DNA of 16,241 bases from a virus. Taxonomy: Duplodnaviria > Heunggongvirae > Uroviricota > Caudoviricetes. Each line of letters opens with the position of its first letter. Position 1 is the first letter of the stretch. The position numbers were made by a program, and so were the translations under genes. Of this stretch, positions 1,068 to 16,241 are shown one piece after another. The DNA lies in the IMG/VR virus record IMGVR_UViG_2778261537_000016, positions 1 through 16,241 of that record, one strand, 5' to 3'. The notes below the pieces were generated by a model. That model saw nothing but the letters and a program-made list of their open reading frames with translations, did not search any database and was not told the origin of the DNA.

Positions 1068-1096
1068 TCAATATATGATGTTAAGAACCTTATACA

Positions 1097-1468
1097 TCAT
1101 AGGTATCGGTATGACTGCGGTGCTGTTATGTTGTCACCTAATGAACTTAGCAAACGTGGTTGTTCATAGACTTTCAAATCACCGATCTTAATCGCAAAGG
1201 CTTTATCCCTGCTTTGAAAGTAAGAATCAAAAAATTGTTTACTGATACCCGCATAACGGCTGGTTTTTTTCCAGACATTGCTGGGTTTATCTTCAATAAC
1301 ATCAGCAATATCGAACTCAGCAACAATCATCCCTACAGGCATTGTTGAATAAATAACCACAGATTTAACATCTGGATTTTTGAAGATTCCTTTTCTGAAC
1401 TCAAACTTTTTTGTTCCATCAAGAATCTTTTCAACAAATTCAGGTTTAATTGACAATAATACTTTCAT
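1097..1468 (-). CDS. ASCH-domain (PUA-like fold) protein
   Basis: 123-aa ORF. N-terminus MKVLLSIKPEFVEKILDGTKKFEFRK matches the characteristic ASCH start (MKxLSIKPEY/W..KI..G.K..E.R). Its start overlaps the end of the upstream gene by about 23 nt, and it ends 79 nt before int. Fold assignment is by eye. Confidence 0.6.
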   Translation of the reverse strand: MKVLLSIKPEFVEKILDGTKKFEFRKGIFKNPDVKSVVIYSTMPVGMIVAEFDIADVIEDKPSNVWKKTSRYAGISKQFFDSYFQSRDKAFAIKIGDLKVYEQPRLLSSLGDNITAPQSYRYL

Positions 1469-2531: not shown

Positions 2532-2545
2532 GTCTCATTGAAAAG

Positions 2546-3625
2546 TCATTTTCTAAATTTAATGAAATTTGCGATTATATATAATGCTATTAACGATAGT
2601 GAACCGTAAATAAATAGGTTTTTATCTAAGCTTTCTGTTGGTACAAATTTCATAACAAATGTTATTGCTGCGCCGTAGAAAATGTATGCAAATATTTTGC
2701 TTAGTTTAGATTTCGTGTTTTTAAATTTTACGACGACAGAAAAATCATTAAGTCTCGAATTTATATCATTTGATATTTTCCAATGATATATCATTGGATC
2801 ATGAGACCCGAAAGATACGCCTTTGCTAAAATATTTTGTCCATGTCTCAGACTCTAAAATTCTTGAACCTTTATAATTTGAACCGGATGCGGAACAGTCA
2901 TCAACCATATCGCGGATTATAAAAATATGGCATTTCAAAGGGGTACAAGCGGCGCTAGCAAGAGTTGTGGCTATTTCGGAGGGCAGGTTTCTTTGCTCAT
3001 TAACCCTAAAATCGATGATATCAGACCGCTCAATACTACTCTTAAGGAAGAGATCTTTGGGGTAAAATGTTTTCACTAAAAGACCGATATCTTCTTTATT
3101 AATTTGGACACGGAATCTTAAATAGTGATTACAAGCATCTTCGGAAGAGAGACAATCCTTGAGTTTAAAGGCTAGTAAGGTGCCATTGTGGATTTTTGTT
3201 ATCTTGACTCTATGATCAAGCTCGCCGCCGCTAAATGATAACTTAGTATTAACAACTAAGTCTCCTTTATTGGCGAGCACTAATTTTAAATGTCTACCAT
3301 CTACTGTTTTAGTGTCAATAAGGTATTCATTGAAAACTGCAGTTACGAGATCTCTGCTTGATTCAAGGTTTTCACTAAGATCAGAAAAAAAATTATTTTC
3401 TTTTTCGAATGGTAGGAATATACATATTGCCCCATGCTTAGCAATGGTTTCATCTTCAGGCTTTTTGAATGTGATGCCAAAATCTAAATAGCCAAATTTA
3501 TGAGCGCTTATGTTCCAAAAATTAATATGCAACTCTTCAATGAAATTCTTATGTTCAGAGTTGTAGGTCGAGCCTGAACTACTATGATAATCCCTACACC
3601 CCCAGACCGCAAAACTTCGTGACAT
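2546..3625 (-). CDS. Membrane-anchored hypothetical protein: large N-terminal soluble domain plus C-terminal 2-TM hairpin
   Basis: ORF 2546..3685 (-). Start set at the ATG at 3625 (MSRSFAVWG...), which has AAGGAA about 7 nt upstream and does not overlap the repressor gene. The C-terminus has two hydrophobic helices (IFAYIFYGAAITFVMKF and LFIYGSLSLIALYIIANFI) and ends KFRK. No recognisable catalytic motif. Visibly AT-rich. Confidence 0.55.
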   Translation of the reverse strand: MSRSFAVWGCRDYHSSSGSTYNSEHKNFIEELHINFWNISAHKFGYLDFGITFKKPEDETIAKHGAICIFLPFEKENNFFSDLSENLESSRDLVTAVFNEYLIDTKTVDGRHLKLVLANKGDLVVNTKLSFSGGELDHRVKITKIHNGTLLAFKLKDCLSSEDACNHYLRFRVQINKEDIGLLVKTFYPKDLFLKSSIERSDIIDFRVNEQRNLPSEIATTLASAACTPLKCHIFIIRDMVDDCSASGSNYKGSRILESETWTKYFSKGVSFGSHDPMIYHWKISNDINSRLNDFSVVVKFKNTKSKLSKIFAYIFYGAAITFVMKFVPTESLDKNLFIYGSLSLIALYIIANFIKFRK

Positions 3626-3651
3626 ATCGATTTCCTTTGTCAGTAACGGTT

Positions 3652-4263
3652 TTAATTCAAATTGACCAGTAAGTAAAAATGGCATCGTGCAATTGGGTTT
3701 AGTTCACTGATAAAGCACTCAAATGAATGGCATGGATTGGGTGCTCCAACCTTGACTCTTCCTACAGGTATTCTCGTAAGTTCTCTAATACTCACTTTCC
3801 CTTCTATCTCTACCACCCACTTACCATCGGTCACTTCGTGAAAATGTTGATCAGCTAAATAGAGCTGATCTGAATCCATGATTACGATAGGTTTTCGCAA
3901 AGAATCTGGCACCAACGCTTTGTCGAGTAGGTAAAAATTTGAATCTAATAATTTCCCATCTTTGATTTTTTTTCGAGGTACGGAAAACAAATCAGCAAGA
4001 ACATTTTCATTTGCTGATTGGATACCTAAAGATTTTTGGGGTGGCTTAGGACTCCCAGTTCCAAATGAAAGCCACTCAACTGGGACGCCGGTCTCAATTG
4101 AGCACTTTATTATCCAGTCAGCAGGGAACACGTCTCTCATCCATCTGGTGCTCATCGTGCTTGTTGAAATCCCAAGCCGCTCACAAAGAGCCTTACGAGT
4201 ACTTACTCCGTAGGCCTCAAGCATACGAAGAATAGCCTCACGGCCACCATTGTTAAAATCCAT
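3652..4263 (-). CDS. CI-like immunity repressor (N-terminal HTH)
   Basis: 203 aa. N-terminal HTH-like segment (STRKALCERLGISTSTMSTRWMRD). AAGGAG sits 7 nt upstream of the ATG at 4263. It is divergent from an Apl/Cro-like gene across a promoter/operator region, the same layout as the 186 cI position next to int. No S24 Ser-Lys peptidase motif was seen. Confidence 0.7.
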   Translation of the reverse strand: MDFNNGGREAILRMLEAYGVSTRKALCERLGISTSTMSTRWMRDVFPADWIIKCSIETGVPVEWLSFGTGSPKPPQKSLGIQSANENVLADLFSVPRKKIKDGKLLDSNFYLLDKALVPDSLRKPIVIMDSDQLYLADQHFHEVTDGKWVVEIEGKVSIRELTRIPVGRVKVGAPNPCHSFECFISELNPIARCHFYLLVNLN

Positions 4264-4288
4264 TAATGCTCCTTTGGAACCTTACATG

Positions 4289-4316
4289 TTGACAAACTCC
4301 AAATGAGACGTAATAT
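4289..4316 (+). promoter_or_regulatory. Sigma70-type early (pR-like) promoter, TTGACA-N16-TAATAT
   Basis: TTGACA at 4289-4294 and TAATAT at 4311-4316. It is oriented toward the Apl/Cro-like gene that starts at 4397. Confidence 0.55.
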
Positions 4317-4338
4317 TGCTACTGAAGCTCATTTGGAG
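4297..4338. promoter_or_regulatory. Candidate operator: perfect 11-bp inverted repeat CTCCAAATGAG-N20-CTCATTTGGAG
   Basis: Arms at 4297-4307 and 4328-4338 are exact reverse complements. They bracket the -10 element and the predicted transcription start of the early promoter. Confidence 0.55.
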
Positions 4339-4396
4339 TCTTCACTGTTGAACACCGCTAGACACGGTTTACTTACTTAAAAAGGAATCTTGCATC

Positions 4397-4618
4397 ATGA
4401 CTCCTCACATTTCAATCACGTTGACTGTTCCTTCCGTATCAATTGAAAAATATAGCGAACTTACTGGGCTATCAATTGACACAATCAATGACATGCTAGC
4501 GGATGGCCGCTTGATACGGCACCGCTTACGCAAAGATAAAAAGCGCGAAAAAGTTATGATCAACATTGCGGCTATGACTGTCGATGCGCTCTCAGATTGC
4601 AACGTGTCCATCAATTAG
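4397..4618 (+). CDS. Apl/Cro-like small HTH DNA-binding protein
   Basis: 73-aa ORF, first gene of the rightward operon and divergent from the repressor. HTH-like segment YSELTGLSIDTINDMLADGRL. GGAA lies upstream of the ATG. Confidence 0.6.
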   Translation: MTPHISITLTVPSVSIEKYSELTGLSIDTINDMLADGRLIRHRLRKDKKREKVMINIAAMTVDALSDCNVSIN

Positions 4619-4650
4619 TTCGATTTTGAGACCGACTGAGGGCAATGACT

Positions 4651-5154
4651 ATGTTTGATTATCAAACCTCCAAACATGCGCACTTTGATGCGGCTTGCCG
4701 AGCATTTGCGATTGAGCACAATCTGGAAGATGTGGCCGCTGCTGTTGGCATGAGGCCACAGATCCTGCGCAACAAATTGAATCCAGCACAGCCACACCGT
4801 TTAACCTGTGACGAGCTTTTAGCTATTACGGATTACACCGAAGATGCGCGTTTACTGGATGGAATGCTGGGGCAGATTAACTGCCTTCCATCCGTACCAG
4901 TGAACAATGCCACAGAAGGCAACATGCAGTTGTGCGCACTGAGTGCCACAGCCTGTGTGGGCGCAATTGCTGGGGAAGCCGTATCCACTGGTCATATGAC
5001 CGCCGCCCGCCGTACACAAATTCTGGATCGCGCTCGCGATGCAATCCGTAGCTTATCCGTGCTGGCTTATACCGTTGAAAGCCGTATCCAGTCTGCGCCT
5101 GTTCTGGCCGCAGCGGTGGATTTGGTGACGGCTAACGCCACCGGCTTGATGTGA
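4651..5154 (+). CDS. cII: CII-like lysogeny-establishment regulator (phage 186 CII family)
   Basis: ORF 4645..5154. The sequence MFDYQTSKHAHFDAACRAFA...LRNKLNPAQPH closely resembles my recollection of the 186 CII N-terminus, and the length (167-169 aa) matches. Start is at 4645 or 4651; GAGGG lies just upstream. Confidence 0.7.
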   Translation: MFDYQTSKHAHFDAACRAFAIEHNLEDVAAAVGMRPQILRNKLNPAQPHRLTCDELLAITDYTEDARLLDGMLGQINCLPSVPVNNATEGNMQLCALSATACVGAIAGEAVSTGHMTAARRTQILDRARDAIRSLSVLAYTVESRIQSAPVLAAAVDLVTANATGLM

Positions 5155-5163
5155 GGGAGCACC

Positions 5164-5391
5164 ATGAAAGCGTTTGTTACTTACCTCAAAAAAGAATCAC
5201 CAGCCATGCAACGGCCAAGCGGTTCAACGGGCTGGATAGAACTGCCGAACAGTCAGCGCTGGAATCCTAGCCACACGTATAAATTCAATGCGCATGAGTC
5301 TGTTCGAATGAAAGGCGGGGTGGTTTTACGTTTCTTGCCAACAAAAGTCCGTCGCCTGGTTAGGTGTATAGGGGGGCGCTATGGCAATTAG
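5164..5391 (+). CDS. Hypothetical early protein (75 aa)
   Basis: ORF with a GAGGGA RBS upstream, co-directional and closely spaced within the early operon. No recognisable domain. Confidence 0.4.
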   Translation: MKAFVTYLKKESPAMQRPSGSTGWIELPNSQRWNPSHTYKFNAHESVRMKGGVVLRFLPTKVRRLVRCIGGRYGN

Positions 5392-5809
5392 TCAGGAACA
5401 GCAACAGCGCGGACTGGATCAGATTAAAAAGATTCGCCGCAAATACTTCAATACCAGCAGTGAGGCTGCTGACTGGTGGGACAAATTAACACCGGAATGG
5501 CGCGGGGTAGTTCTCCATGCCGCCGCTGTTAATTCTGGCTTGAGTGTATTCAAAGCCCACTTAAGCAAATGCTGCTGGCGGGAACTGTTTGAGCGTCTGG
5601 ATTACCGGGCAATGATTCAGCTGCGCTGCGGCATTTCCCGTGCGCGTCTGACGATGAATGGATTCGGGTCATTGCGTGACAGTGATTTTTCTAAAAGTAC
5701 CGCGAACCGTCCAATAAAGCGGGCTTATCCAATCAATAACAATCGGGGTCCGCAGATGATTATCGCGCCTCATATCGTCCATAAGTTACAACAACAGGGG
5801 AATCTCTGA
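5381..5809 (+). CDS. Hypothetical early protein (142 aa)
   Basis: ORF with a G-rich RBS (AGGGGGG) upstream. It overlaps the upstream ORF by 11 nt and its stop overlaps the next start. No recognisable domain. Confidence 0.45.
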   Translation: MAISQEQQQRGLDQIKKIRRKYFNTSSEAADWWDKLTPEWRGVVLHAAAVNSGLSVFKAHLSKCCWRELFERLDYRAMIQLRCGISRARLTMNGFGSLRDSDFSKSTANRPIKRAYPINNNRGPQMIIAPHIVHKLQQQGNL

Positions 5810-6210
5810 TGGCCATTATTTCCGTTGAAGGTAAATCGTTAGGGGCTGAGCTGGCCGTGTGGGGCGTTCCACATAATTATGCCGTGGCGTTTGCAGAGAA
5901 AAGCACCAGCAAAAACGGTCGCATTGCGCTGCATCCGTTCTTCTTTAATGACACTGAGCACATGACTAATCCGCGTCACTGGCTGGCAATCAATGCCGCT
6001 TTCTGGTGCTGCGTGTACCGCGAGGCCGAAAGCAAAGAAGCACAGGTTGAAGCGCTGGCTGGGATCCGCGCAATTTTCTACACGGCCGGTGCGTTGGGTG
6101 TTGGCGAAATTAAAGCACTGATCCAGGAGTGGTGGCGGACAACGTACGAGCTGCACCTTATTCCTGCACCGAACCATTCCGCCGTCACTGTACAACCCGC
6201 TTTTCACTAA
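5809..6210 (+). CDS. Hypothetical early protein (133 aa)
   Basis: ORF with an AGGGGA RBS. Its start overlaps the stop of the upstream ORF. No recognisable domain. Confidence 0.45.
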   Translation: MAIISVEGKSLGAELAVWGVPHNYAVAFAEKSTSKNGRIALHPFFFNDTEHMTNPRHWLAINAAFWCCVYREAESKEAQVEALAGIRAIFYTAGALGVGEIKALIQEWWRTTYELHLIPAPNHSAVTVQPAFH

Positions 6211-6278
6211 TTAACAACATGATTTTTTTTGGCCACAGCTTAGGTGGCCGGGGATTCTTTTGCCTTAAGGAAACCAAA

Positions 6279-6512
6279 ATGCACATGACACGTCAGGATT
6301 TACCCGCAACAAAATCAGGCACTGACCTGCTGGCTATGCTCACCCAAGCCACTCAGGAAGGTAAAGCCGCTGCTGCTGATCTGTGTTCCACCCGTCTGGA
6401 TAAGCTGGCCACCCATGCAGCCAATGAAGGTTTAAGCGCAACGGAAATCATTGAGTTAATCCGCGAAGAAGCCGCAGCGATTTGCAGTAAAGGCGGTGCA
6501 GCATGGCAGTAA
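6279..6512 (+). CDS. Hypothetical small protein (about 77 aa)
   Basis: Internal ATG of ORF 6129..6512 with AAGGA 7 nt upstream (MHMTRQDLPATKSG...). The 5' extension to 6129 overlaps the preceding gene and is probably not translated. Its end overlaps the dam start by 10 nt. Confidence 0.45.
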   Translation: MHMTRQDLPATKSGTDLLAMLTQATQEGKAAAADLCSTRLDKLATHAANEGLSATEIIELIREEAAAICSKGGAAWQ

Positions 6513-7372
6513 AAACTCCGCTTAAGTGGGTGGGCAGCAAAGCCCGCCTTATGCCGCAGTTGCTTCCCCATCTGCCAGAGGGTAAGCGCCTGATAGAACC
6601 TTTTGCCGGTTCCTGTGCTGTCATGATGAATACGGATTATGACGAGTATCTGATAGCTGATGTGAATCCTGACCTTGTTAATCTGTATAAGACGATGGCT
6701 TATCACACTGATGCATTGCTCATTGAGCTGGAGGCTTTATTTTCTGCCGGTTCATTAGGTGATGAAGAAAACAGGGCAATTTTCTATTACGCGGTGCGTG
6801 ATGCCTTCAACCAGTCCGGCAAATCCTTTGGTTCTGAATCTGTGGAAGCTGCGGCGCGTTTTCTTTATCTGAATCGTCACTGCTTCAATGGCCTGTGCCG
6901 ATACAATCGCCGTGGTCAGTTCAATGTTCCGTTTGGTAAGTACAAAAAAACCTACTTTCCTGCTGATGAAATCCGCGCTTTTGCAGAAAAAGCGAAACGT
7001 GCAACGTTCATTACTGCCAACTATTCAGAAACGCTTGATTTGGTAAGGGACGGGCATGACGTTGTTTATTGTGATCCGCCTTACCTGACTGATACCGACA
7101 ATTTCACCGCTTACCATGAGCGCGGTTTTTCGCACATGGATCAGGGACGGCTGGCGCGTAAGCTGCGTCGCCTGGCTGAGCGCGGGATTAAGGTTGTCGC
7201 GTCAAACAGCGATCTGGAAATGGTGCATTACCTGTATTCAGGATTCGAAGCGGTTCGGGTCAATGCGCCACGCAGTGTGGGTGCAGCAGCTGCAAGCCAG
7301 AAAGTGGCCGCAGAGCTCATTCTGAAGTCACCTGCTAACCCGGCGATCGACGTTCGGGCGGTGGGGGCATGA
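6503..7372 (+). CDS. dam: DNA adenine N6-methyltransferase, Dam/D12 class
   Basis: 289 aa. Collinear with E. coli Dam motifs: LKWVGSKARL (cf. LKWAGGKYPL), EPFAGS (AdoMet binding), FLYLNRHCFNGLCRYNRRGQFNVPFGKYKK, and catalytic DPPY (VVYCDPPYL). No restriction endonuclease gene is adjacent. Confidence 0.9.
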   Translation: MAVKTPLKWVGSKARLMPQLLPHLPEGKRLIEPFAGSCAVMMNTDYDEYLIADVNPDLVNLYKTMAYHTDALLIELEALFSAGSLGDEENRAIFYYAVRDAFNQSGKSFGSESVEAAARFLYLNRHCFNGLCRYNRRGQFNVPFGKYKKTYFPADEIRAFAEKAKRATFITANYSETLDLVRDGHDVVYCDPPYLTDTDNFTAYHERGFSHMDQGRLARKLRRLAERGIKVVASNSDLEMVHYLYSGFEAVRVNAPRSVGAAAASQKVAAELILKSPANPAIDVRAVGA

Positions 7373-7581
7373 TGACGGAAATTATCACCGGCATTTATGC
7401 CTTGTTTGCCTGTATTACTTTCGCCTTTCTCTTATGGGACGAATGCCAGGACGAATTTGATCACGATGCTGAGGACTTAGGGTTAATCACTCTGAGTGCG
7501 GTTTTTTGGCTACCACTGGTAGCGGCTGTACTTGTGGCTTTCCTGATTGATTTCTGGCGTAAGTGGGTTAACCGTGGTTGA
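7369..7581 (+). CDS. Small predicted membrane protein (70 aa, two TM helices)
   Basis: The start overlaps the dam stop (ATGATGA). Two hydrophobic helices (IITGIYALFACITFAFLLW and LSAVFWLPLVAAVLVAFLIDFW). A GGGGG RBS lies upstream. Confidence 0.5.
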   Translation: MMTEIITGIYALFACITFAFLLWDECQDEFDHDAEDLGLITLSAVFWLPLVAAVLVAFLIDFWRKWVNRG

Positions 7582-7582
7582 T

Positions 7583-9598
7583 ATGCTGGAGCCTGGCCAA
7601 CACCAGACCGTCAATGCCTGGCGGCGTGAAACCTTTGCGCTTGGTACCCCGTCAGATGCAACGATCACAGAACGCCGTTTGTGGGCTGTAAACCCACAGG
7701 ATTATGAATGGCGTTCCCAGTACCTGCATGAAATACCCGACTGGTTAGCCGGGTATTTTGGCAACCGTTACGAAAAGCTGCTGGCTGGTCGTGACGGGCG
7801 TCGCCGTGCCAATACGTTCCTGCGCAAAACTATCGGCGGGAATGTATTGCCACGTCTGCGCAAAGTGGCTGCACGTTACAAACTGGCCGCTGATGCACTT
7901 GATCTTCCTTTCGGTAAGTCGCTGGAGCGACTGCCGTCACTTGACCGCCCGGAACTCAAAAAACTGGCTGGCCAGATATCTGGCTGGATCTCCCAGTCAC
8001 TGTATGACTTTACCGATCAGTTTGTGGGCAGCACTGACGATGCCGCAGAGCTGCGCCGCCGTACGCTGGAGTCTTACCGCCATTTATGCACGTGTTCCCT
8101 GATGCTGAACAATCAACCGCCGTACTGGGCTGAACATGAAGCTAATGGCGGGCAACTGGAAACGCGTAAGGCTGAATCCGGGATCCTCCGCATGATGGCA
8201 CCTGAATGGTGGTATCTGCGTCTTAAGCGGGCGCGGGATATGCAGCGTGAGCATATGGCCATTGCAGTGGGGCAAGTACAGAAAGCGGCCAGCGCTTATG
8301 TGTCCCGTAAAACCTTGGGCGAATGGATAGACCAGAAAAAGCGGAACCTTGAGTTCTTCAAAAAGTTTGACCTGCTGAATGATGAAGGGCTGCGTATTGC
8401 ACTGGACAGCATGGTGCATCGCAGCGTTGCTAATCCGGCGATCCGTCGCTGTGAGCTAATGGTAAGAATGAGAGGATTTGAAGATATGGCCAATGGAGAA
8501 GGACTGGCCGGTGAGTTTTACACCATCACCGCGCCATCGCGATTCCATGCGGTACACAGCAAAGGGGGCTTTGTTTCACAGTGGGATGGCTGCACTCCGC
8601 AGGATACCCAGCGCTACTTATGTGGTGTATGGGCGAAAGCCCGCGCCGCTATTTCCCGTGCAGGTATCCATGTTTTTGGTTTTCGTGTAGTAGAGCCTCA
8701 CCACGATGGCACACCGCACTGGCACATGCTGCTTTTTATGCGTCCTGGTGACGTGGATACCGTGCGCGATATTCTTTGTTATCACGCCAGAATTACTGAC
8801 TCCGAAGAACTGCAAACGCCAAACGCGCTAAAGGCACGTTTCCATGTTGAAGCCATCGATCCCGCTAAAGGCTCGGCTACGGGTTACATAGCCAAATATA
8901 TATCCAAAAACATTGATGGTTTTGCGCTGGATGGTGAACAGGACGACGAAACAGGGGAGAACCTACGGGACATGGCCAAGTCCGTTTCTGCATGGGCTTC
9001 ACGCTGGCGCATTCGCCAGTTTCAGCAGATTGGTGGTGCGCCGGTGACTGTCTGGCGCGAGTTGCGCCGGTTACGTGATCAGGTACTGACTGACCGAAGA
9101 ATGGATTCGGTTCTGGCTGCTGCGGATGTTGGTGACTGGGCGGCGTACACCCAGGCGCAGGGTGGCGCACTGGTTTCCCGCCGTGACCTGGTTGTTCGTC
9201 TGGCTTATGAAATCACGGAACAGGGTAATGAATACGCAGAGGACGTGCAGCGCGTTCAGGGTGTCTATTCTCCATTGGTTCCAGATTCAGCGGTATGTAC
9301 GCGCTTGGTGAAGTGGCAGAAGGTTGCGAAGTTGGCCGAAGCGCCAGCGGAGGCGGGTTTTTCTGGCGGCAGCGCCGCCCCTTGGAGTTCTGTCAATAAC
9401 TGTACGGAGGGTGGAACCCGCAGACGGTTAAAACTGGAATTGCGAAGCCGGGGTTTTGAAGGTTCTGACGATGAAATAGCCATTCTCATGCGGGGCAGTG
9501 GTTTGAGATTTGGCCAGGCGGCGTTGATTTACCGTAATGGCAGGTTACAGGAGACACGAAACGAGCCAATGCACGAGCTGTGGCCGGGGTGGTTGTAG
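7583..9598 (+). CDS. Rolling-circle replication initiator endonuclease (P2 gpA / 186 A family)
   Basis: The ORF tool starts at a TTG at 7547; the first ATG is 7583, directly after the upstream stop. HUH metal-binding motif HHDGTPHWHMLLF and twin active-site tyrosines in GSATGYIAKYISKNIDG, as in P2 A. Length about 670 aa. Confidence 0.85.
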   Translation: MLEPGQHQTVNAWRRETFALGTPSDATITERRLWAVNPQDYEWRSQYLHEIPDWLAGYFGNRYEKLLAGRDGRRRANTFLRKTIGGNVLPRLRKVAARYKLAADALDLPFGKSLERLPSLDRPELKKLAGQISGWISQSLYDFTDQFVGSTDDAAELRRRTLESYRHLCTCSLMLNNQPPYWAEHEANGGQLETRKAESGILRMMAPEWWYLRLKRARDMQREHMAIAVGQVQKAASAYVSRKTLGEWIDQKKRNLEFFKKFDLLNDEGLRIALDSMVHRSVANPAIRRCELMVRMRGFEDMANGEGLAGEFYTITAPSRFHAVHSKGGFVSQWDGCTPQDTQRYLCGVWAKARAAISRAGIHVFGFRVVEPHHDGTPHWHMLLFMRPGDVDTVRDILCYHARITDSEELQTPNALKARFHVEAIDPAKGSATGYIAKYISKNIDGFALDGEQDDETGENLRDMAKSVSAWASRWRIRQFQQIGGAPVTVWRELRRLRDQVLTDRRMDSVLAAADVGDWAAYTQAQGGALVSRRDLVVRLAYEITEQGNEYAEDVQRVQGVYSPLVPDSAVCTRLVKWQKVAKLAEAPAEAGFSGGSAAPWSSVNNCTEGGTRRRLKLELRSRGFEGSDDEIAILMRGSGLRFGQAALIYRNGRLQETRNEPMHELWPGWL

Positions 9599-9676
9599 CC
9601 TCGTAAGTCTGTGATACATCACTGTTTGTCAACGAATAGCAGCAAAAATCACTTTCACATTTTGTGCTTAAATGTA

Positions 9677-9696
9677 TACTGTATGAATATACAGTT
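9677..9696. promoter_or_regulatory. LexA (SOS) box, TACTGTATGAATATACAGTT
   Basis: CTGT-N8-ACAG with an AT-rich spacer, a near-perfect match to the LexA consensus TACTGTATATATATACAGTA. It lies about 20-40 nt upstream of the small ORF at 9714 and its AGGAGG RBS (9708-9713). Confidence 0.75.
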
Positions 9697-9713
9697 ATTC
9701 TGTTTTTAGGAGG

Positions 9714-9932
9714 ATGCTTGTGCAGGATTTGTTTATGGAAACTATCGCATTGCAGCGGATTGCGTTGTTTACCAGGTTGATCGCCAAAAGTAATTGCACT
9801 GGCTGTGAAAAGGACATTGCACTTGCCTGGCTAAGCGAGCTGACTTCAGATCTGGAAAGTAAACTTGATGAATATGAAAGTAAAAACCCCCGGGAAGGGG
9901 GCTTATCAGGCGGCGGGAGTCGCTTTCAGTAG
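9714..9932 (+). CDS. SOS-controlled small protein at the tum position (candidate Tum-like antirepressor)
   Basis: 72-aa ORF just downstream of the LexA box and a strong AGGAGG. That RBS abuts the ATG at 9714, so the GTG at 9720 may be the real start. In 186 the LexA-repressed tum gene sits downstream of A in the same place. No sequence homology to Tum was verified, and the ORF runs through the convergent terminator and overlaps the ogr-like 3' end. Confidence 0.4.
   Translation: MLVQDLFMETIALQRIALFTRLIAKSNCTGCEKDIALAWLSELTSDLESKLDEYESKNPREGGLSGGGSRFQ
9882..9902 (-). terminator. Rho-independent terminator for the ogr-like gene
   Basis: On the minus strand a GC hairpin (GCCCCC-TTCCC-GGGGG) is followed by TTTTT, immediately after the ogr-like stop at 9906-9908. 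Confidence 0.6.
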
Positions 9933-10175
9933 GTCTAATGCCATTTGACGCTGATCGGGTGACAGTGCATTCAGTATTTTCTGCACCATAGCATCACCCG
10001 TTTTCGCGCTGGGGCTGAGAGTGTGGGAGAACGTCAGATTCATCACAAACGTATGGCCACACTCAACATCTGAACAGGCGCAGTAAATATCCGCAATCTG
10101 CCGGTGCTTCCGGTTTGTGTTACGAATAACAGCCTTTGAGCCGCATTCCGGGCATTCGATTTTCAGAACTCGCAT
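9906..10175 (-). CDS. Ogr/Delta-family zinc-finger late-gene transcription activator
   Basis: ORF 9906..10229 (-). The internal ATG at 10175 gives MRVLKIECPECGSKAV...YCACSDVECGHTF, matching the Ogr pattern CxxC-x22-24-C-x4-C followed by TF (compare P2 Ogr CPLCQ...CQNVNCSATF). GGAG lies upstream. Confidence 0.75.
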   Translation of the reverse strand: MRVLKIECPECGSKAVIRNTNRKHRQIADIYCACSDVECGHTFVMNLTFSHTLSPSAKTGDAMVQKILNALSPDQRQMALDLLKATPAA

Positions 10176-10225
10176 ATTCCATGCTCCAGCTGTTAAATGA
10201 TGCCTGGATTTTAGCCTTTTTCGCC

Positions 10226-11287
10226 TCATGCCGCACCCTTATCCGTTGATTCTGTGTAACTTAAATCAAAGTTAAGGTGCAGCCTTTCCGGTATTTCGGG
10301 ATCGTTGTTCACCGCAGTCATAAACCGGCGCTGAATGGGTGCTATTTCGCTTTTCTTGTAAATCCTTTCCGCCTTTTCAACATCCCCCAGGCCGGCAGTG
10401 TTCTGCGGGACAATTCCGGCCAGCCCTGCGGGAAAGCGGTGTGCGTTGAGAATGTCCTGTGCGCTGATGTTTTTGATGTTGGCAAATTCATCTTTTGCAG
10501 AGATATCCCCCATTTCAATAAACTTGATCGCATCCCCATCCCCGCCTGGAATGTTCACCAGAATGGTGGAGAAGTTGCCGATACCTTTGCTGTCCCGCAG
10601 CTGCTGTTCAATCTCTTCTTCCATTTCATCCGTCATGCTGGGATCGCGCGTGTAGAGAATGCCGCCAGTATGGGCGCCGTTGTGGTAGTAACGGCGGCGA
10701 AAAATCACGGCTTCACTGTTAAGCAATGCCGAGTGTACGCCGCCGATATAGTCGGGCAGCCCGTAAATATGCTGCTGCGGGTCGTACATCTTGATAAAAA
10801 TGATATCTTCTTGCGGCCATACCTGCGGTTCACCGTCCTGCAATACCACATAATCGCCGGGCTGGTCTGCGGCGTTGTCCCTGACTTTACGGCGGCGAAT
10901 ATACAGGCCGGGTAAAGGTTCCAGGGCAATCACATCTCCCCATCCGTTGCGGATTTTGCCAATCGCAATATCCCCGAAGGTTGTATAGTCAAACGCTGCG
11001 GCTTCCAACTGGTCGTAAGTCAGGCCACCGCCCAGATAATCAGACACAATCATATTTTTCCGGGCGTGGATAATGCCGCCATGCTGACCGTTCAGATTGA
11101 TAAGCTGTGCCAGTGCCAGCCGGTCAATCGGCTGGGTAAAGTGATCGGCGGCATTGTCGTACCAGATGTCGCGGTAATCCGTGCCGGTGGTCAGGACGGG
11201 TTCCGGTTTGCCGAATGTGATGATGCTCATTTTTTTGGATTTATCGCCGCGCGGGTTGCGCTTAACGAAGCGGTTTTTTTTACTCAT
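10226..11287 (-). CDS. Portal protein (P2 gpQ family)
   Basis: 353 aa. Collinear with P2 Q as I recall it: MSKK..., ITFGKPEPVL (cf. FTFGEPVPVL), LNSEAVIFRRRYYHNGAHTG (cf. LNESATLFRRKYYENGAHAG), LRDSKGIGNF, KDEFANIKNISAQDILNAHRFP, GLGDVEKA. Its start overlaps the terminase stop by 4 nt. Confidence 0.9.
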   Translation of the reverse strand: MSKKNRFVKRNPRGDKSKKMSIITFGKPEPVLTTGTDYRDIWYDNAADHFTQPIDRLALAQLINLNGQHGGIIHARKNMIVSDYLGGGLTYDQLEAAAFDYTTFGDIAIGKIRNGWGDVIALEPLPGLYIRRRKVRDNAADQPGDYVVLQDGEPQVWPQEDIIFIKMYDPQQHIYGLPDYIGGVHSALLNSEAVIFRRRYYHNGAHTGGILYTRDPSMTDEMEEEIEQQLRDSKGIGNFSTILVNIPGGDGDAIKFIEMGDISAKDEFANIKNISAQDILNAHRFPAGLAGIVPQNTAGLGDVEKAERIYKKSEIAPIQRRFMTAVNNDPEIPERLHLNFDLSYTESTDKGAA

Positions 11288-12441
11288 GCAGCCTCTTTCC
11301 TTACACCCCAGCGGGATTTCGGTTTATTTTCGTAGTTGAGTGGTTCGTTATGCAGGGCGTGGGTAATTGCCCAGAACGCCTCTGCGTGGCCAGTGTCCTG
11401 GCTGCGGTCAGCGACAAATGTCATGGCGTTACCACTTTGCGTGGTGGTGCGGCGTACAGCCATAAAGCTGGCCGGGATCTCTTTCAGGTTCTTGTCCCAT
11501 TCAATACGCTGACTTTCCACCACGTCCGCCGCTTTCAGTACCAGCTGATTTTTCGTGTTCATGTCGTAACGAATGGCGACGGCCACGCGCATGGCAAAAT
11601 GCTGGATGTTGTCAAAAACACCCTGGCCAATACCGGTAACGTCCACTCCCAGATAGGTGAAGTTGTATTTTTTAAACAGGAGTTCGATCTGCCTGGCCTG
11701 ATAGCGGAAGTTCATGCCCTTCCAGTTAATGACCTTCAGAACGCGGAATTTCTCTGCGGCATACATCGGCGGGGCAATAATCACAAAACACGACAAATCG
11801 CCGCTACGTGCCGGGTCAAAGCCTCCCCATACTGGCCTGTCACCGAATGGCCGCGCAGCGTCCGGGTTGTGATCCTGCCAGGTGTCCACCTCCACGCCGC
11901 AGGCTTCCAGGTCTGAAAAGCTGAATACGGAATCCTTGCTGTCCACGAAGACGCACATATAGAGCATGTTGAAGGTGGCCGTGTTGTAGCGGTTGCGCAG
12001 CTTCTCGATGTTGGCCAGGTTGAAGCCACCTGCAATGGCATCCTCCATCGTGATGACATAGCGCCACTGCCCATCCGGGCAAAGCCGTCCGCCGTCGCGC
12101 ATGTCATCAAAAGACGGGAACTGGGCGGCCGCGCGTTTTTTGCTGCCCTGTTTCCATTCCTCACCCGTCCAGAACGGGTAAGCCTGGTGCGTTTTGGCCG
12201 ATGGTGTTGAAAAGTAGGTGGTGCGCCATTTGTCATGGGTGGCCATTGCGCTGGCCACTTCGTTAAGCCTGGCGAAGTTAGGCACCCAGAAATATTCGTC
12301 ACAGTACAGGTGGCCACTGTAGGACTGGGCTGTGTTCTTGTTGGTTGAGAGAAAACGCAGTTCAGCGCCGTTGCTGAGGCGGATCGGGTTGCCGGTCAGC
12401 GTTATGCCAAAATACTGTTCTGCAATGTTGACGATGTAAGA
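11284..12441 (-). pseudogene. Terminase large subunit (P2 gpP family), 5'-truncated; N-terminal region including the expected Walker A is absent
   Basis: ORF 11284..12285 plus an in-frame open extension upstream. The translation (...NGAELRFLSTNKNTAQSYSGHLYCDEYFWVPNFARLNEVASAMATHDKWRTTYFSTPS...) matches the central and C-terminal part of P2 P, including a Walker-B-like YCDEYFW. The frame hits a stop at about 12472-12474 with no ATG and no Walker A, and AT-rich non-coding DNA follows. Confidence 0.75.
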
Positions 12442-12517
12442 TAGGATGTACCGTTTTTTAAAAACAACTAGTTATACACTTTGTGGGAGCCTATTGGGAA
12501 CCTGAAGTTTTGCTCTT

Positions 12518-12537
12518 TCTATTCATATCTATTCATA
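12518..12537. repeat. Perfect tandem direct repeat TCTATTCATA x2
   Basis: Read directly at 12518-12527 and 12528-12537, in the AT-rich spacer between the truncated terminase and the next module. Confidence 0.6.
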
Positions 12538-12562
12538 AAGCACCATTTGCTGCCTTATCTGA

Positions 12563-12589
12563 TTGACCAAAAACAACCGCGGTTATAGA
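12563..12589 (+). promoter_or_regulatory. Candidate sigma70 promoter (TTGACC ... TATAGA) for the 12645 operon
   Basis: TTGACC at about 12563-12568 and a TATAGA-like -10 about 15-17 bp downstream. GAGG RBS lies 5 nt before the ATG at 12645. Weak call by eye. Confidence 0.3.
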
Positions 12590-12644
12590 CTTTGCTCCAA
12601 ATAGCTAAGGCTATTGCTTAGTAAGTAAAACAGTTGAGGTTGCC

Positions 12645-13184
12645 ATGAATCCGTTTAACGCCATTACTTTTGCTGCATTGTGCGGGCCTCTGGCTTGTCC
12701 TGCTGCTATGGCGCAGGAGTTCATCATCCAGCCAGCCCCTGTGATTGCTAAACCTTTTGAGTACTCTCCTTCTGTTGAGGAATTCTCACGCAGAATGGAA
12801 GAGGGTAAGGAGATCTTGCAAAAGTTAACAATTGCAGCAGATGACTACTATATCTGTTTGATTGATCTTAATAGCCAAGATGCTCGCGAGTTTGTTTCCA
12901 AAAACGGGACAGATACGACAGAGGCATGCGAAATGTTCCTGCGTGCTTTTGAAGAAGAAGTGAAGCGTACAATTGAATCGCCTCTGCCTGAATTTATCAG
13001 GTCAGAACTGAAGGTTTACTGGCGTCATATTGCTAAAGCTCGCTCATCTGTCACTCGCCTTAACAATTACATAAAGAGCATATTTAAAGAAACTGTTACG
13101 TTTAGCGGGCGCGCGGATCTTGCTGGAATTGCAGCACTAGCTAGTCACACATCAAATAAGCTAAAATCGATGCAATTTCACTAA
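12645..13184 (+). CDS. Hypothetical protein with signal-peptide-like N-terminus (179 aa); upstream partner of the YafO-like gene
   Basis: N-terminus MNPFNAITFAALCGPLACPAAMA/QE is hydrophobic with an AxA-type cleavage site but lacks a positively charged n-region. The rest is charged and helical with no recognisable domain. GAGG RBS. Stop is 16 nt before the next gene. Confidence 0.5.
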   Translation: MNPFNAITFAALCGPLACPAAMAQEFIIQPAPVIAKPFEYSPSVEEFSRRMEEGKEILQKLTIAADDYYICLIDLNSQDAREFVSKNGTDTTEACEMFLRAFEEEVKRTIESPLPEFIRSELKVYWRHIAKARSSVTRLNNYIKSIFKETVTFSGRADLAGIAALASHTSNKLKSMQFH

Positions 13185-13200
13185 CCGATAGCGGACGACC

Positions 13201-13635
13201 ATGCATCTAGAAGTCTCTATTAATCCAGAAACTAGAGCTGAATTTTTTGATGAAGTTTTTCTCAAATTCCCGGAGCTAGAGTCTTCTATCATTGATGATT
13301 TCAAGAGATACAAAGCAACCGGTGAGCTTCCGCATTATTTCGGTAGGGACGTTGCGTATACTCAGCCCTATGGTGCTTTTCGGGCTGGGTTGATGCATAT
13401 CCATCTTTGTCTACCGCCAAACAAGTTTCCCGAGAAACTTCCACAACCGGATAGGGTCTGCAAGAAAGGTGATCCTGATAATGATGCTTGTCTTGTGTAT
13501 GTCCAAGGTGAGCTTTATGAGAATAAATATTCACTCATTGCTATTATGTATCCCGATGCACATGAAAAAGCAAGAAAACATGATGTGATGAGCTATCTGG
13601 CGCGAATTGCCCAGAATTATAAAGATGAAAACTAA
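13201..13635 (+). CDS. YafO-family type II toxin-like protein (ribosome-dependent mRNA interferase family)
   Basis: 144 aa. Collinear with E. coli YafO as I recall it: YK..G.LP..FGRD..Y, HIHL, D.A(C/H)LVY.QG, LIAI..P..H..AR. The gene is followed immediately by a strong terminator. Confidence 0.6.
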   Translation: MHLEVSINPETRAEFFDEVFLKFPELESSIIDDFKRYKATGELPHYFGRDVAYTQPYGAFRAGLMHIHLCLPPNKFPEKLPQPDRVCKKGDPDNDACLVYVQGELYENKYSLIAIMYPDAHEKARKHDVMSYLARIAQNYKDEN

Positions 13636-13655
13636 CCCGCCGAAGCGGGTTTTTT
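13636..13655 (+). terminator. Rho-independent terminator (CCCGC-CGAA-GCGGG followed by TTTTTT)
   Basis: Perfect 5-bp GC stem with a tetraloop and a T6 run, directly after the stop at 13635. It lies between convergent genes and may also act on the minus strand. Confidence 0.8.
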
Positions 13656-13661
13656 GTGAGA

Positions 13662-13934
13662 TTAGTTATTTATTTTCCTATTTGTTCTTACCCTCTCCCA
13701 TTCAATTCTGCCTTCTTCACGCCGTTTATCTATATATTCAGCAAGATCCTGAATGTTGATGCAGCGCTTTGCTTTCTGTGATGTACCAACACGATAAGTC
13801 GGGATCGGCAATTGGCATGCATTTGCTTTCGCTTCTGCTGTGTTAGGGCTCATACCGAAATACTTTTGGCATACAGCTGACAGCTCAATGTTTGGGGTAT
13901 TGAATTCAGCCATCAGTAAAAACAAGGTGTTCAT
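13662..13934 (-). CDS. PrtN-family (pyocin activator-like) transcriptional regulator
   Basis: ORF 13662..13961 (GTG per the ORF tool); the ATG at 13934 has GGAG upstream. The sequence FGMSPNTAEAKANACQLPIPTYRVGTSQKAKRCINIQDLAEYID matches the conserved PrtN core as I recall it. Confidence 0.65.
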   Translation of the reverse strand: MNTLFLLMAEFNTPNIELSAVCQKYFGMSPNTAEAKANACQLPIPTYRVGTSQKAKRCINIQDLAEYIDKRREEGRIEWERVRTNRKINN

Positions 13935-13970
13935 AATTTTCTCCATCAAAACCGGCTGCACCCGGGAAAA

Positions 13971-14543
13971 TCATAATTCTGTGCTGGTGGCAGGAATTAG
14001 TTTCTGCCAGATAGCGGAAACATATTTTGCCTGATGACGGGCATCAGCCAGGGCGTTGTGCCGTTCGCCATCGAAAGGCATGTCCATTTTTGGGTCGAAT
14101 CCGATGGAACGCCCAAGCGTAACGATCGTGCGTACATCGTGGTCATTCCAGTACGCCCACGGGCAGATTTGTCCTGCTCGCTCGTAAGCTCCACGTAAAA
14201 TTACGTTGTCGAAGGTGGCCCCGTTACCCCAGACTTTTAAATATTTTGTATTGTCTGCATGCTGATTAATGAAATGGCTCAGTTCAGAGAGTGCATCGCT
14301 GATCGACAAAGTATCATCAATACAGATTGCAGCTCGTGCTTCAGAGCTCTGTTTCAACCACCACAGGATGGTATCGCCGTCAGGTGTAGCTCCTTGCTTC
14401 ATAGCACTGTCCAGGCTAACAACCGTATAGAATTCTTGTCCGATGTCTCCGGTTTCTGGAGTGAAGAACACCGCGCCAATGGAAACGATCGGTGCATCCT
14501 TATTTTTCCCCATCGTCTCAAGGTCGATCATTAAGTTGTTCAT
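13971..14543 (-). CDS. DnaQ-like 3'-5' exonuclease (DEDDh family)
   Basis: Exo I motif IDLETMG, Exo II WGNGATFD, Exo III HNALADA. The ATG at 14543 has a GAGGTGA RBS; the ORF tool's 14546 is a GTG. Its start overlaps the upstream stop by 1 nt. Confidence 0.8.
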   Translation of the reverse strand: MNNLMIDLETMGKNKDAPIVSIGAVFFTPETGDIGQEFYTVVSLDSAMKQGATPDGDTILWWLKQSSEARAAICIDDTLSISDALSELSHFINQHADNTKYLKVWGNGATFDNVILRGAYERAGQICPWAYWNDHDVRTIVTLGRSIGFDPKMDMPFDGERHNALADARHQAKYVSAIWQKLIPATSTEL

Positions 14544-15352
14544 CACTTCACCTCTTGTGATGGTTTTGCTGCAAAATACTCGATACCTTTATCCCAGATA
14601 GATTTTATGGTCGACCACGTGACTGGCACTTTAATTTCAATACGTCCGCTCCCGTCACAGGTATCGCAATCATCATCGCCAAAGCATTCCAGGCAGCTTA
14701 TAAACGTAGTTTCTGAAAATTCACCGGATAGCGCCCCCTTAGCGCCGTTCTCGGCTGTTAGTCTCTTCGGCACCATAACCCAACCATCCGGAGTTACCGG
14801 AGAGTTGCCAGACAGTGCGTTCTGCAATCGTTCCAGCTTAACGTATTCCTGAACCCTGTTTCCGTCGCACGCCTGAAGCCATTGCACAGCCTTTTGCGCA
14901 TCAGTGTGAAAGGCACAAGTGCGACCGTCATCAAATTGCATTTCGTAGAGGTCAGCAACCTGTTTAAACTGCGTTTGTGGCAACTTGTAAGCCTGGCTTG
15001 CAGGTACGGCACCATAGAGCATGGCAGCGCGGCAGGCGTTCCAGCCTTCATCAAAACCGACTATGCCATTATTTAAAGACGGACGAGCATCTGGCACCAC
15101 CGGCACTGGCTTGGCTATATATAGCGGCTGAACATACCAGCCCTTTGATAACCAACTGTCAGCAATGTTTTTACTCCTGGTTATTGCCGGAATACCTAAG
15201 CCATTGTCTGAATGCAGCCATGCCACCGGATCCTCTTCCAGCGATGCCAGAGCAATTTCATAAGCACGGCGCTCAACATTGTCTCGCACGTCCATGCTGC
15301 TGATTCGTTCTTTGATTTCTTTAATCAGTTCTTTATCGGTAAATGTGGTCAT
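14543..15352 (-). CDS. Hypothetical prophage early protein (269 aa) with a C-terminal Cys-rich motif
   Basis: Operon member with coupled start and stop. C-terminal CLECFGDDDCDTCDGSGRIE resembles a small zinc-ribbon (CxxC...CxxC). No other motif recognised. Confidence 0.55.
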   Translation of the reverse strand: MTTFTDKELIKEIKERISSMDVRDNVERRAYEIALASLEEDPVAWLHSDNGLGIPAITRSKNIADSWLSKGWYVQPLYIAKPVPVVPDARPSLNNGIVGFDEGWNACRAAMLYGAVPASQAYKLPQTQFKQVADLYEMQFDDGRTCAFHTDAQKAVQWLQACDGNRVQEYVKLERLQNALSGNSPVTPDGWVMVPKRLTAENGAKGALSGEFSETTFISCLECFGDDDCDTCDGSGRIEIKVPVTWSTIKSIWDKGIEYFAAKPSQEVK

Positions 15353-15714
15353 TATGCTCCAGCCTCCGGTGCTTTTGGCATTACTGCCCAGTGAGTGATG
15401 TTGACGTTTTCAAGGTCCCCGACCTGAAATGTCCACTGCCATTCTCCGGTTTCTTTTTGCCCCCATGTATACCAGAGAGAACGCCAGCCAATCAGCCAGC
15501 CTTCTCCATTAGCATCAAATAACAGAACACTTTCATTCGCTGGCGGCAGTTCAGCTGACACTGGTATTACTTTGTTTTCCAGTGCTGCACATTTAGCTTC
15601 AAGCGCATTAAATTTACGCACCAGGTATTCAGCATCCGTTTCATTCACTTTCAGATCTCGCGGTACACATTTCCCGCGAAGAAATCCTTCCATTTCGAAA
15701 ACATTCATGCGCAT
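15352..15714 (-). CDS. Hypothetical prophage early protein (120 aa)
   Basis: ORF with GGAG upstream of the ATG at 15714. Trp-rich C-terminal half (GWLIGWRSLWYTWGQKETGEWQW). It overlaps the upstream gene by 10 nt. Confidence 0.5.
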   Translation of the reverse strand: MRMNVFEMEGFLRGKCVPRDLKVNETDAEYLVRKFNALEAKCAALENKVIPVSAELPPANESVLLFDANGEGWLIGWRSLWYTWGQKETGEWQWTFQVGDLENVNITHWAVMPKAPEAGA

Positions 15715-16241
15715 TTGCGTAACTCCGATAATTCGTTAAAGCGTTCCATAAACATCCCGTAGGCATGGCCTGGAGCCAGTGGAATCACGTTGAACATCTC
15801 TGTTGCCGGGATACCTTCCAGTACAGGCCAGAAAGAGCCATCATCAAGCCCGAGATCGCGGCGTTCGGTTGCCAGCATGATGAGATCGGCATATTTCACG
15901 GGCGTACTCATAACCGGTGGTAACCCGTATTTCTCACGGATTACGGCGTCTATTTTTTCTTCCATCCGTTTATAGTCAGGAAGAAGGCGTTTCAGTGGTG
16001 CGGGAATGTCCTGGCAATACGCTTCTGTTGCATCATGCATTAACGCTTCAAAAGCAAATTCCTGCGGCACCAGCTGGCTGCAAAGAACCGCATGTTGGGC
16101 GACGCTGTAGAAGTGCGAAAGATGACCGGCAAAGCGACAGATATTTGAAAGGGAAACCGCGATATCGTTAATATCGATGTCGTCTTTATTTATCCTGTCA
16201 TAATAAAAATGCTTCCCGGAAAAAGTTTTAATAAATGACAT
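15705..16241 (-). CDS. HD-domain phosphohydrolase, YfdR-like 5'-deoxynucleotidase
   Basis: 178-aa ORF whose ATG is at the window edge (16239-16241). HD-domain signature (H...HD...D): SVAQHAVLCSQL, ALMHDATEAYCQDIP, ADLIMLATERRDLG. Length and N-terminus match my recollection of E. coli prophage YfdR. The upstream promoter is outside the window. Confidence 0.7.
   Translation of the reverse strand: MSFIKTFSGKHFYYDRINKDDIDINDIAVSLSNICRFAGHLSHFYSVAQHAVLCSQLVPQEFAFEALMHDATEAYCQDIPAPLKRLLPDYKRMEEKIDAVIREKYGLPPVMSTPVKYADLIMLATERRDLGLDDGSFWPVLEGIPATEMFNVIPLAPGHAYGMFMERFNELSELRKCA

Follow-up and report, generated by a model that had tools for sequence, protein, structure and literature searches.

An SOS box and a short tum-like gene at the tum position of a 186-like prophage

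In a 16,241-nucleotide stretch of viral DNA (IMG/VR record IMGVR_UViG_2778261537_000016, positions 1 to 16,241; hereafter the window), an SOS box and a short tum-like gene lie directly behind the replication gene of a 186-like prophage. Together they probably form an SOS induction module, in which a LexA-repressed promoter would drive a short, stand-alone Tum antirepressor; we put the probability of this reading, its mechanism included, at about 0.8. A first-pass annotation, made from the letters of the window and its reading frames, had guessed at an SOS-controlled antirepressor in the position of 186 tum, and Tum homology, the promoter, and synteny now support that guess well, such that the conserved small gene is most likely an antirepressor. 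A DNA damage switch is expected of 186-like phages, and this one is of a published kind (PSP3 TumA and Fels-2) that introduces no new principle; particular to the window lineage are the absence of a DinI partner and the overlap with the terminator of ogr.

The features on which the argument draws are as follows.

about 1-1017, minus strand: int
between int and cI, minus strand: three cargo ORFs
3652-4263, minus strand: immunity repressor CI of the 186 type, on which the antirepressor presumably acts (Pfam Phage_CI_repr, 4.1e-25; Phage_CI_C, 1.5e-29)
plus strand: an Apl/Cox-like gene, CII (Phage_CP76), and several small genes
7547-9598, plus strand: replication gene A (Phage_GPA)
9654-9659, plus strand: putative -35 hexamer TTCACA (invariant in a five-way alignment; identical to the annotated -35 of 186 p95)
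9677-9696, plus strand: LexA box TACTGTATGAATATACAGTT, whose first six bases, TACTGT (9677-9682), are the putative -10 (conserved in relatives; layout as in 186 p95)
9708-9713, plus strand: Shine-Dalgarno sequence AGGAGG, 6 nt before GTG 9720 (read from the sequence; a GGAGG-type motif also precedes the homologous start in relatives)
9720-9932, plus strand: tum-like gene (TumA type, probable short antirepressor), GTG start, 70 codons plus stop (PHROG, BLASTP, hhalign, dN/dS)
9720-9884, plus strand: predicted helical-hairpin domain, residues 1-55, common to Tum, TumA, and the Fels-2 and DuoHS proteins (AlphaFold2 model, family hits)
9884-9904, minus strand: intrinsic ogr terminator, with the hairpin AAGCCCCC-TTCCC-GGGGGTTT ahead of a run of T residues (terminator scan; fold of -12.9 kcal/mol)
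9885-9929, plus strand: C-terminal tail, residues 56-70, NPREGGLSGGGSRFQ (dN/dS, pLDDT, frameshift variant)
9906-10229, minus strand: ogr/Delta-type zinc-finger late-gene activator (Pfam Ogr_Delta, 8.6e-20; phrog_603, 3.5e-44)
10226-11287, minus strand: portal gene

Genomic setting and coding evidence

The window covers the early region of a 186-like (Peduoviridae) prophage. The small ORF sits between gene A and the portal gene, with ogr in between, which agrees with its earlier placement between the replication and packaging genes; Pfam matches and synteny put it directly 3' of gene A in a prophage with CI, Apl, and CII of the 186 type, and the order of the locus is shared with ESSI2_ev040, 186, PSP3, and Fels-2. 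The closest phage records are those of Escherichia phages ESSI2_ev040, ev015, and ev129 (Quadragintavirus), which are about 90% identical to the window over positions 9500-10300. Between int and cI, the cargo differs among relatives. Homology to P2-like relatives ends at about position 12450, inside the gene for the large terminase subunit; starting at about 12440, the window instead shows 99-100% identity to the end of lambdoid prophages such as PhiR40_1. This junction means that the prophage has been interrupted or truncated, and its induction may yield no phage.

The first-pass annotation had described a strong AGGAGG followed by an ORF of 70 to 72 codons, and both lengths can be read, depending on the start. 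Three in-frame starts share the stop codon TAG at 9930-9932: ATG 9714 (72 amino acids [aa], without spacing from the Shine-Dalgarno sequence), GTG 9720 (70 aa, 6-nt spacing), and ATG 9735 (65 aa). We read GTG 9720 as the homologous start of the tum-like gene: it aligns with the starts of the Siccibacter, SC477, and Fels-2 genes (all ATG) and with those of the Cronobacter ESSI-2 and 186 genes (both GTG). ATG 9714 was rejected as it abuts the Shine-Dalgarno sequence, and ATG 9735 was rejected as it would drop conserved residues 1-5, which align with Fels-2, Siccibacter, and 186. Start calls in databases disagree (86 aa in ESSI2_ev040, with the start inside the SOS box; 72 aa; and 65 aa in EcPF15), and the gene is uncalled in several genomes and in the Cronobacter ESSI-2 record; elsewhere, in RefSeq Escherichia coli genomes and phage records, it is a "hypothetical protein."

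The ORF is conserved in relatives and bears a strong coding signature, the two properties whose absence the first-pass annotation had said would count against it. Over codons 2-53, the window and ESSI2_ev040 differ by 14 substitutions, 12 of them at third positions; 12 are synonymous and 2 nonsynonymous (dN of 0.016 and dS of 0.50, for a dN/dS of about 0.03). The body of the ORF in a second pair, SC477 and JNE25, gives a dN of 0.055 and a dS of 0.59 (dN/dS of 0.09). These values indicate a real gene whose domain appears to be under strong purifying selection. A minus-strand ORF at 9695-9817 (40 aa) was considered and found to lack support, the substitution pattern fitting the plus-strand frame.

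Constraint is confined to the body of the protein. The AlphaFold2 model (mean pLDDT of 78 overall and of 80-92 over residues 1-50) predicts helices at residues 2-22 and 28-55 and disorder in the tail, where pLDDT falls below 50 at residues 60-67. From codon 54 to the end, dN/dS is about 0.5 (window versus ESSI2_ev040) and about 2.6 (SC477 versus JNE25), compared with 0.03 to 0.09 in the body, and a natural variant, P0010, carries a frameshift in the tail. The tail residues "KNPREGG..." arise by translation of AAAAACCCCC...GGGGG: the terminator of ogr is embedded in the tum-like ORF, whose last 27 nt overlap the convergent ogr gene itself, and ESSI2_ev040 keeps the stem of this terminator with a different loop. 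In SC477, near-identical flanking DNA surrounds an ORF body that is 46% identical to that of the window, a pattern suggesting that the body behaves as an exchangeable cassette and that the tail is fixed by ogr. The last ~15 to 17 residues are not a functional part of the protein but a tolerated consequence of translation that continues across the ogr terminator into the 3' end of ogr. No convincing plus-strand terminator was detected 3' of the ORF; CTTATC comes after the hairpin at 9887-9901 on that strand, and this hairpin folds no better than shuffled sequences (z of -0.31) and is a terminator for the minus strand only.

Homology to the N-terminal half of Tum

The homology search against Tum that the first-pass annotation had proposed links the ORF to the N-terminal half of 186 Tum. 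Pfam and NCBIfam hold no family model for the ORF (the sole Pfam hit, MYRF_ICA, is irrelevant, with 16.4 bits against a cutoff of 24.1), but the protein matches two PHROG profiles, phrog_698 (E value of 1.8e-17) and phrog_8554 (E value of 1.3e-7), both labeled "unknown function," and residues 1-70 of 186 Tum match the same two profiles (E values of 5.9e-6 and 3.4e-12, respectively). When the family of the window protein (alignment A3) was compared by hhalign with the 186-type Tum N-terminal family (alignment A4), residues 5-44 aligned with residues 5-44 at 91.5% probability (E value of 8.8e-7), in a register that runs from the same start. BLASTP against the 62-aa Fels-2 ORF STM2728 gives 49% identity over residues 1-53 (53 aa; E value of 4e-18), and pairwise BLASTP against 186 Tum and PSP3 TumA gives no alignment, so the link to 186 Tum rests on profiles and on the Fels-2 bridge. 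Solved structures related to the N-terminal domain were sought by sequence in the PDB and none was found; the sole match was that of the 186 Tum DinI half to 1ghh.

By these comparisons, the ORF is a homologue of the N-terminal (antirepressor) half of 186 Tum, that is, a TumA-type short Tum, which is tied to the family by 186 Tum as well as by the short Fels-2/DuoHS form. The first-pass suggestion that it might be a distinct small antirepressor does not survive the hhalign match, the shared PHROGs, and the 49% identity to Fels-2. Its companion remark, that the product is much shorter than 186 Tum and not demonstrably similar to it, stands as to length (70 versus 146 aa) and falls as to similarity, which is visible to profiles and was missed earlier because pairwise BLASTP to 186 Tum finds nothing. 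The difference in size carries no weight because 186 Tum is a fusion whose halves are separate genes in PSP3 and Fels-2. Antirepressors of the large Ant, KilAC, or Bro type were also considered, and a Pfam scan found no ANT, KilA-C, or Bro-N domain in the ORF.

The family extends well beyond these phages. Among 1.84 billion representatives searched, the profile retrieved 103 cluster representatives at an E value of ≤1e-3, by which we count the family as at least 103 clusters at 50% identity; with the window's own cluster excluded, 94 of 102 hits are 90 aa or shorter, and the match mostly spans residues 1 to about 53. Family members conserve the pattern M.D...E...L.RI.L.ARL.....C...(D/E)K..AL.WI.EL...L., and a search with the N-terminal half of 186 Tum likewise recovers many proteins of 60-90 aa, some of them named "Tum protein" by NCBI. 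Several overextended gene calls open with peptides such as MYTV.IYS or MILY.YTV, which may be translations of an SOS box; if so, boxes precede these genes widely. A contig scan with alignment A1 returned only 2 loci because it relied on a single peptide pattern, and phage records and E. coli genomes were used in its place.

The comparison with characterized systems hinges on the distribution of DinI. Tum of 186 looks like an antirepressor-DinI fusion, the two halves being split by a stop codon in Fels-2 and PSP3 (Lemire et al. 2011, PMC3121763); in the split tum of PSP3, it is the upstream half that encodes the antirepressor (PMC3121763). In the PSP3 record, the products are called TumA ("UV induction of prophage") and TumB, and the 186 record describes Tum as LexA repressed and as inhibiting DNA binding by CI. 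In 186 Tum, Pfam DinI covers only residues 87-145, so the label "DinI," which databases give to 186 Tum and its PHROG, is not valid for the part that is homologous to the ORF. The ORF itself has neither a DinI fold nor a Pfam DinI (PF06183) hit, tblastn of the DinI half of 186 Tum against the whole window reaches a best E value of 0.79, and the gene that follows is the convergent ogr rather than a dinI. No dinI follows tum in the window, ESSI2_ev040, EcPF15, 300709, SC477, JNE25-001, or Cronobacter ESSI-2; a dinI gene follows it in PSP3, Fels-2, DuoHS, the Klebsiella phage, and 813R9, and in 186 the DinI half is fused to Tum.

Genetic evidence for the short form comes from DuoHS, a prophage of E. 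coli HS, in which a 62-aa ORF (ECHS_RS04495, "hypothetical protein") stands behind an SOS box and ahead of a dinI-like gene and differs from the Fels-2 ORF at 2 of 62 residues. Deletion of tum in DuoHS abolishes induction by mitomycin C (Phollow study; PMC12055606). The published deletion primers fuse exactly the ATG and TGA of this 62-aa ORF, and because the tum that was deleted is that ORF, the short form is genetically validated in a protein 49% identical to that of the window.

Individual systems compare with the window as follows. The Fels-2 STM2728 and DuoHS genes share with it the 49% identity, the start register (MQD...), an upstream SOS box with a strong Shine-Dalgarno sequence, and a position directly after gene A in a 186-type immunity region; they differ in that tum is followed, after 10 nt, by a separate dinI-like gene and that ogr is located at the opposite prophage end, whereas the window lacks dinI and has ogr convergent with the ORF and overlapping it, an arrangement that appends 15 unconstrained residues to the protein. 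With 186 Tum (146 aa), the window protein shares a homologous N terminus of ~45 residues, a GTG start, a location behind gene A, and a cognate CI with an identical arrangement of Pfam domains, but 186 Tum carries its fused C-terminal DinI domain, is followed by orf97, and is only about 22% identical. PSP3 likewise has a short (60-aa) upstream antirepressor gene behind a near-consensus SOS box, TACTGTATAAATATACAGTA, but its TumA is about 11% identical to the window protein, gives no BLASTP hit, and is accompanied by TumB (DinI). In the Gifsy GfoA/GftA and N15 AntC systems, LexA represses a small antirepressor that inactivates a noncleavable phage repressor (PMC3121763), the same logic as that proposed for the window; we found no sign of relatedness, judged from a Pfam scan in which the window protein has no match above threshold.

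Promoter and SOS boxes

The element at 9677-9696 reads as an SOS box and lies where a 186-type prophage has its tum. It matches the consensus TACTGTATATATATACAGTA at 17 of 20 positions, and both half-sites (CTGT...ACAG) are perfect, in keeping with its first description as a near-consensus LexA box; 11 bp separate it from AGGAGG. The core CTGT-N8-ACAG occurs twice in the window against an expectation of 0.18 (2 of 200 shuffles reach two).

The box overlaps the -10 of a predicted promoter, whose hexamers the first-pass annotation had not pointed out, in which TTCACA and TACTGT are separated by a 17-bp spacer. This layout closely follows that of p95, the SOS promoter of 186, for which the annotated -35 is TTCACA, the -10 is TACTGT, the spacer is 18 bp, and the LexA site starts at the -10; both hexamers are identical and the box is placed alike, the spacers differing by one base pair. 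At the level of sequence, then, the locus has the promoter of the Tum/TumA family, with a LexA box over the -10. An alignment of the window, EcPF15, ESSI2_ev040, SC477, and 186 shows no variation in the -35 hexamer or in either half-site of the box; the center of the box and its flanks vary. A generic sigma-70 scan of positions 9400-10400 called no promoter, as TACTGT agrees with TATAAT in just 3 of 6 bases, and we do not count this against the promoter since the validated p95 has the same weak -10.

Conservation of the box extends to further relatives. We compared 13 related loci from Escherichia, Salmonella, Klebsiella, Cronobacter, Siccibacter, and one MAG contig (186, PSP3, Fels-2, and E. 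coli HS among them), and 12 have a strong LexA box at the equivalent place 5' of the homologous ORF; in the exception, Klebsiella phage ST15-OXA48phi14.1, one half-site is mutated. Boxes near int aside, the box 5' of tum is the sole strong box in these stretches of 8-33 kb.

The other box in the window lies at int. It spans positions 1048-1067, matches the consensus at 17 of 20 positions, and falls within the spacer of a strong minus-strand promoter (TTGACA-17-AAAAAT, 10 of 12 matches; 1043-1071) just upstream of the Shine-Dalgarno sequence and ATG of int. Boxes directly 5' of int also occur in EcPF15, 300709, and ESSI2_ev040, and 813R9 has a weaker one (16 of 20) at the edge of the locus, about 30 nt from the end of int that is its putative start. 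Within the region of the 186 record that was retrieved, no SOS site is annotated at int, and a literature search on SOS boxes in int promoters returned nothing.

Proposed mechanism and alternative readings

In an undamaged cell, LexA would sit on the box, over the -10 and the transcription start, and keep the gene silent, as suggested by the sequence and by the identical layout of 186 p95. DNA damage would lead to RecA-stimulated cleavage of LexA and to transcription of the gene that starts at GTG 9720, whose two-helix domain of ~55 residues would, by analogy with its homologues, bind the 186-type CI and stop it from binding its operators, after which the early lytic promoter would be derepressed. 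The CI-binding step is proposed because 186 Tum biochemically blocks DNA binding by CI and the short tum of DuoHS is genetically needed for induction. The CI of the window has no hit to any self-cleavage (peptidase) domain in Pfam, so SOS induction would need an antirepressor.

Comparison among 11 phages gives a lead, albeit a weak one, as to the contact on CI. Phages with more similar Tum domains also have more similar CI N-terminal domains (Mantel rho of 0.75; P of about 2e-4), and no such correlation holds for the C-terminal domain (rho of 0.04; P of 0.40), which serves as an internal control for simple linkage, in a sample that is small and whose 11 taxa are not phylogenetically independent. 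Because of this difference, Tum likely contacts the N-terminal, DNA-binding domain of CI. The Tum proteins of the window and EcPF15 are identical, and their CIs share 51% identity in the N-terminal domain and 38% in the C-terminal domain; specificity is therefore either broad or not set by what was measured.

The same pair of prophages bears on the alternative that deserves most attention, namely, that the gene encodes a LexA-controlled Tum relative that no longer acts on its own CI and instead modulates the SOS response, serves as a trans-acting antirepressor of other 186-like prophages (crosstalk), or persists as a remnant within a defective prophage. One protein beside two such dissimilar CIs would fit this reading, as would the interruption of the terminase gene by the end of a lambdoid prophage, and trans-acting antirepressors are documented for Gifsy prophages (PMC3121763). 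However, the same type of Tum accompanies the same type of CI in ESSI2_ev040, the record of a complete phage genome, the domain is under strong purifying selection, and a DinI-like SOS-modulating role lacks a basis in the sequence because there is no DinI domain; we regard this alternative as improbable, though it is the most credible of the rival readings.

Considerably less plausible are two readings in which the resemblance to tum misleads. The gene might encode a small SOS-induced protein with an unrelated role (an inhibitor of cell division or replication, or a superinfection exclusion factor) that shares with Tum a helical hairpin and nothing else. Short helical proteins can indeed yield spurious profile matches, no Pfam or NCBIfam family lends a name, and the matching PHROGs are of "unknown function"; but the alignment with 186 Tum keeps its register from a shared start codon, the two genes have promoter, box, and genomic position in common, and an identity of 49% to Tum of the DuoHS/Fels-2 type, which is genetically validated, greatly exceeds chance expectation, so that we think this quite unlikely. 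Least probable of all, and very nearly dismissed, is that the ORF is untranslated and that the SOS box is a chance match or drives a transcript that enters the convergent ogr and portal genes and acts there as antisense RNA or as a roadblock. With no convincing plus-strand terminator 3' of the ORF, SOS transcripts should run antisense into ogr, but such an effect could add to coding without replacing it, and the third-position bias, the dN/dS of about 0.03, the conserved Shine-Dalgarno sequence and start codon, and the 103 protein clusters of matching length all argue for translation.

The preferred reading therefore remains that of a LexA-repressed promoter and a short Tum antirepressor. As a speculative extension of it, which we consider unlikely but slightly less so than the loss of action on its own CI, the SOS input could be wired differently from that of 186: a Tum hairpin without DinI would act on a conserved DNA-binding surface of CI, would be active across heteroimmune 186-like prophages, and would be joined by direct gating of int by LexA through the promoter at 1043-1071. 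Were this true, induction and excision would be two separately LexA-controlled arms, and a defective prophage like that of the window could still be an SOS-triggered inducer of related prophages in trans.

The main value of the finding lies in annotation, as the gene is unnamed or uncalled in databases and, where called, is given three different start codons. Variation in its tail and partner (with or without DinI and with or without overlap with ogr) provides naturally occurring variants with which the contribution of DinI to induction can be examined. The gene probably decides whether widespread 186-like prophages respond to DNA damage, and its recognition would make the SOS inducibility of P2/186-like prophages predictable from sequence.

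A candidate LexA-controlled promoter for int

A second near-consensus SOS box, TACTGTATGTATAAACAGTG, matches the LexA consensus at 17 of 20 positions and sits in the spacer (17 bp) of what looks like a strong promoter (TTGACA ... AAAAAT, 10 of 12 hexamer positions), directly downstream of which are the integrase Shine-Dalgarno sequence (AAGGAGGG) and ATG (1017):

1043-1071, minus strand: promoter-like site
1048-1067, minus strand: SOS box

SOS boxes also directly precede int in the relatives EcPF15 (locus L004, 2755), 300709 (L013, 663), and ESSI2_ev040 (L012, 1171), and 813R9 has a weaker one (16/20; L011, 90) close to the int end, at the edge of that locus. No LexA site is annotated upstream of int in the portion of the 186 record examined, and a literature search turned up none. 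Given the boxes in the window and its relatives, int seems, on sequence grounds, to be under its own LexA-controlled promoter in these phages.

Cargo genes and a lambdoid junction

Three cargo ORFs occupy the interval between int and cI, and the window ends in lambdoid sequence:

1097-3685, minus strand: three cargo ORFs
1097-1468, minus strand: cargo ORF for an ASCH-domain protein
12450-16241: lambdoid part, with genes for YafO toxin, a 3'-5' exonuclease, YfdR, and Ea22

Neither of the other cargo proteins (361 and 379 aa) has a Pfam match. In relatives, the same slot holds a TPR protein, an AAA ATPase with DUF4276, or a P-loop NTPase; it looks like a variable hotspot, probably defense related.

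Homology to the P2/186-like relatives stops at ~12450, within the terminase large-subunit gene (junction at 12440-12450), whose remaining ORF (11284-12285) encodes 333 aa, compared with about 591 aa in relatives. From ~12440 on, the window is 99 to 100% identical to the end of lambdoid prophages such as PhiR40_1 (from its position 17). The 186-like prophage is thus bordered or broken into by a lambdoid prophage end, which leaves it defective or split here.

Annotation of the tum-like gene and transcription beyond it

Calls of the tum-like gene are inconsistent across records (L001, 6173-6433; L004, 10436-10633; L009, 7971-8192; L014, 8414-8617): it is called as 86 aa in ESSI2_ev040 (L001), with a start that falls within the SOS box, and as 65 aa in EcPF15 (L004); Cronobacter phage ESSI-2 and E. 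coli JNE25-001 have no call for it. In databases, 186 Tum goes under the label "RecA filament binding protein DinI," as does its PHROG (phrog_189), a name that masks the antirepressor half. A contig labeled "MAG: Bacillota bacterium" (JAEWTL010000126.1; L006, 318-563) combines a Tum-like ORF (38% identity) with an SOS box of the enterobacterial type (TACTGTATGTATATCCAGTT); it probably derives from an enterobacterial prophage and was binned wrongly.

Because no convincing plus-strand terminator was found 3' of the tum-like ORF (region considered, 9884-10229), SOS-induced transcripts should read through, antisense to the convergent late activator gene ogr and the portal gene.
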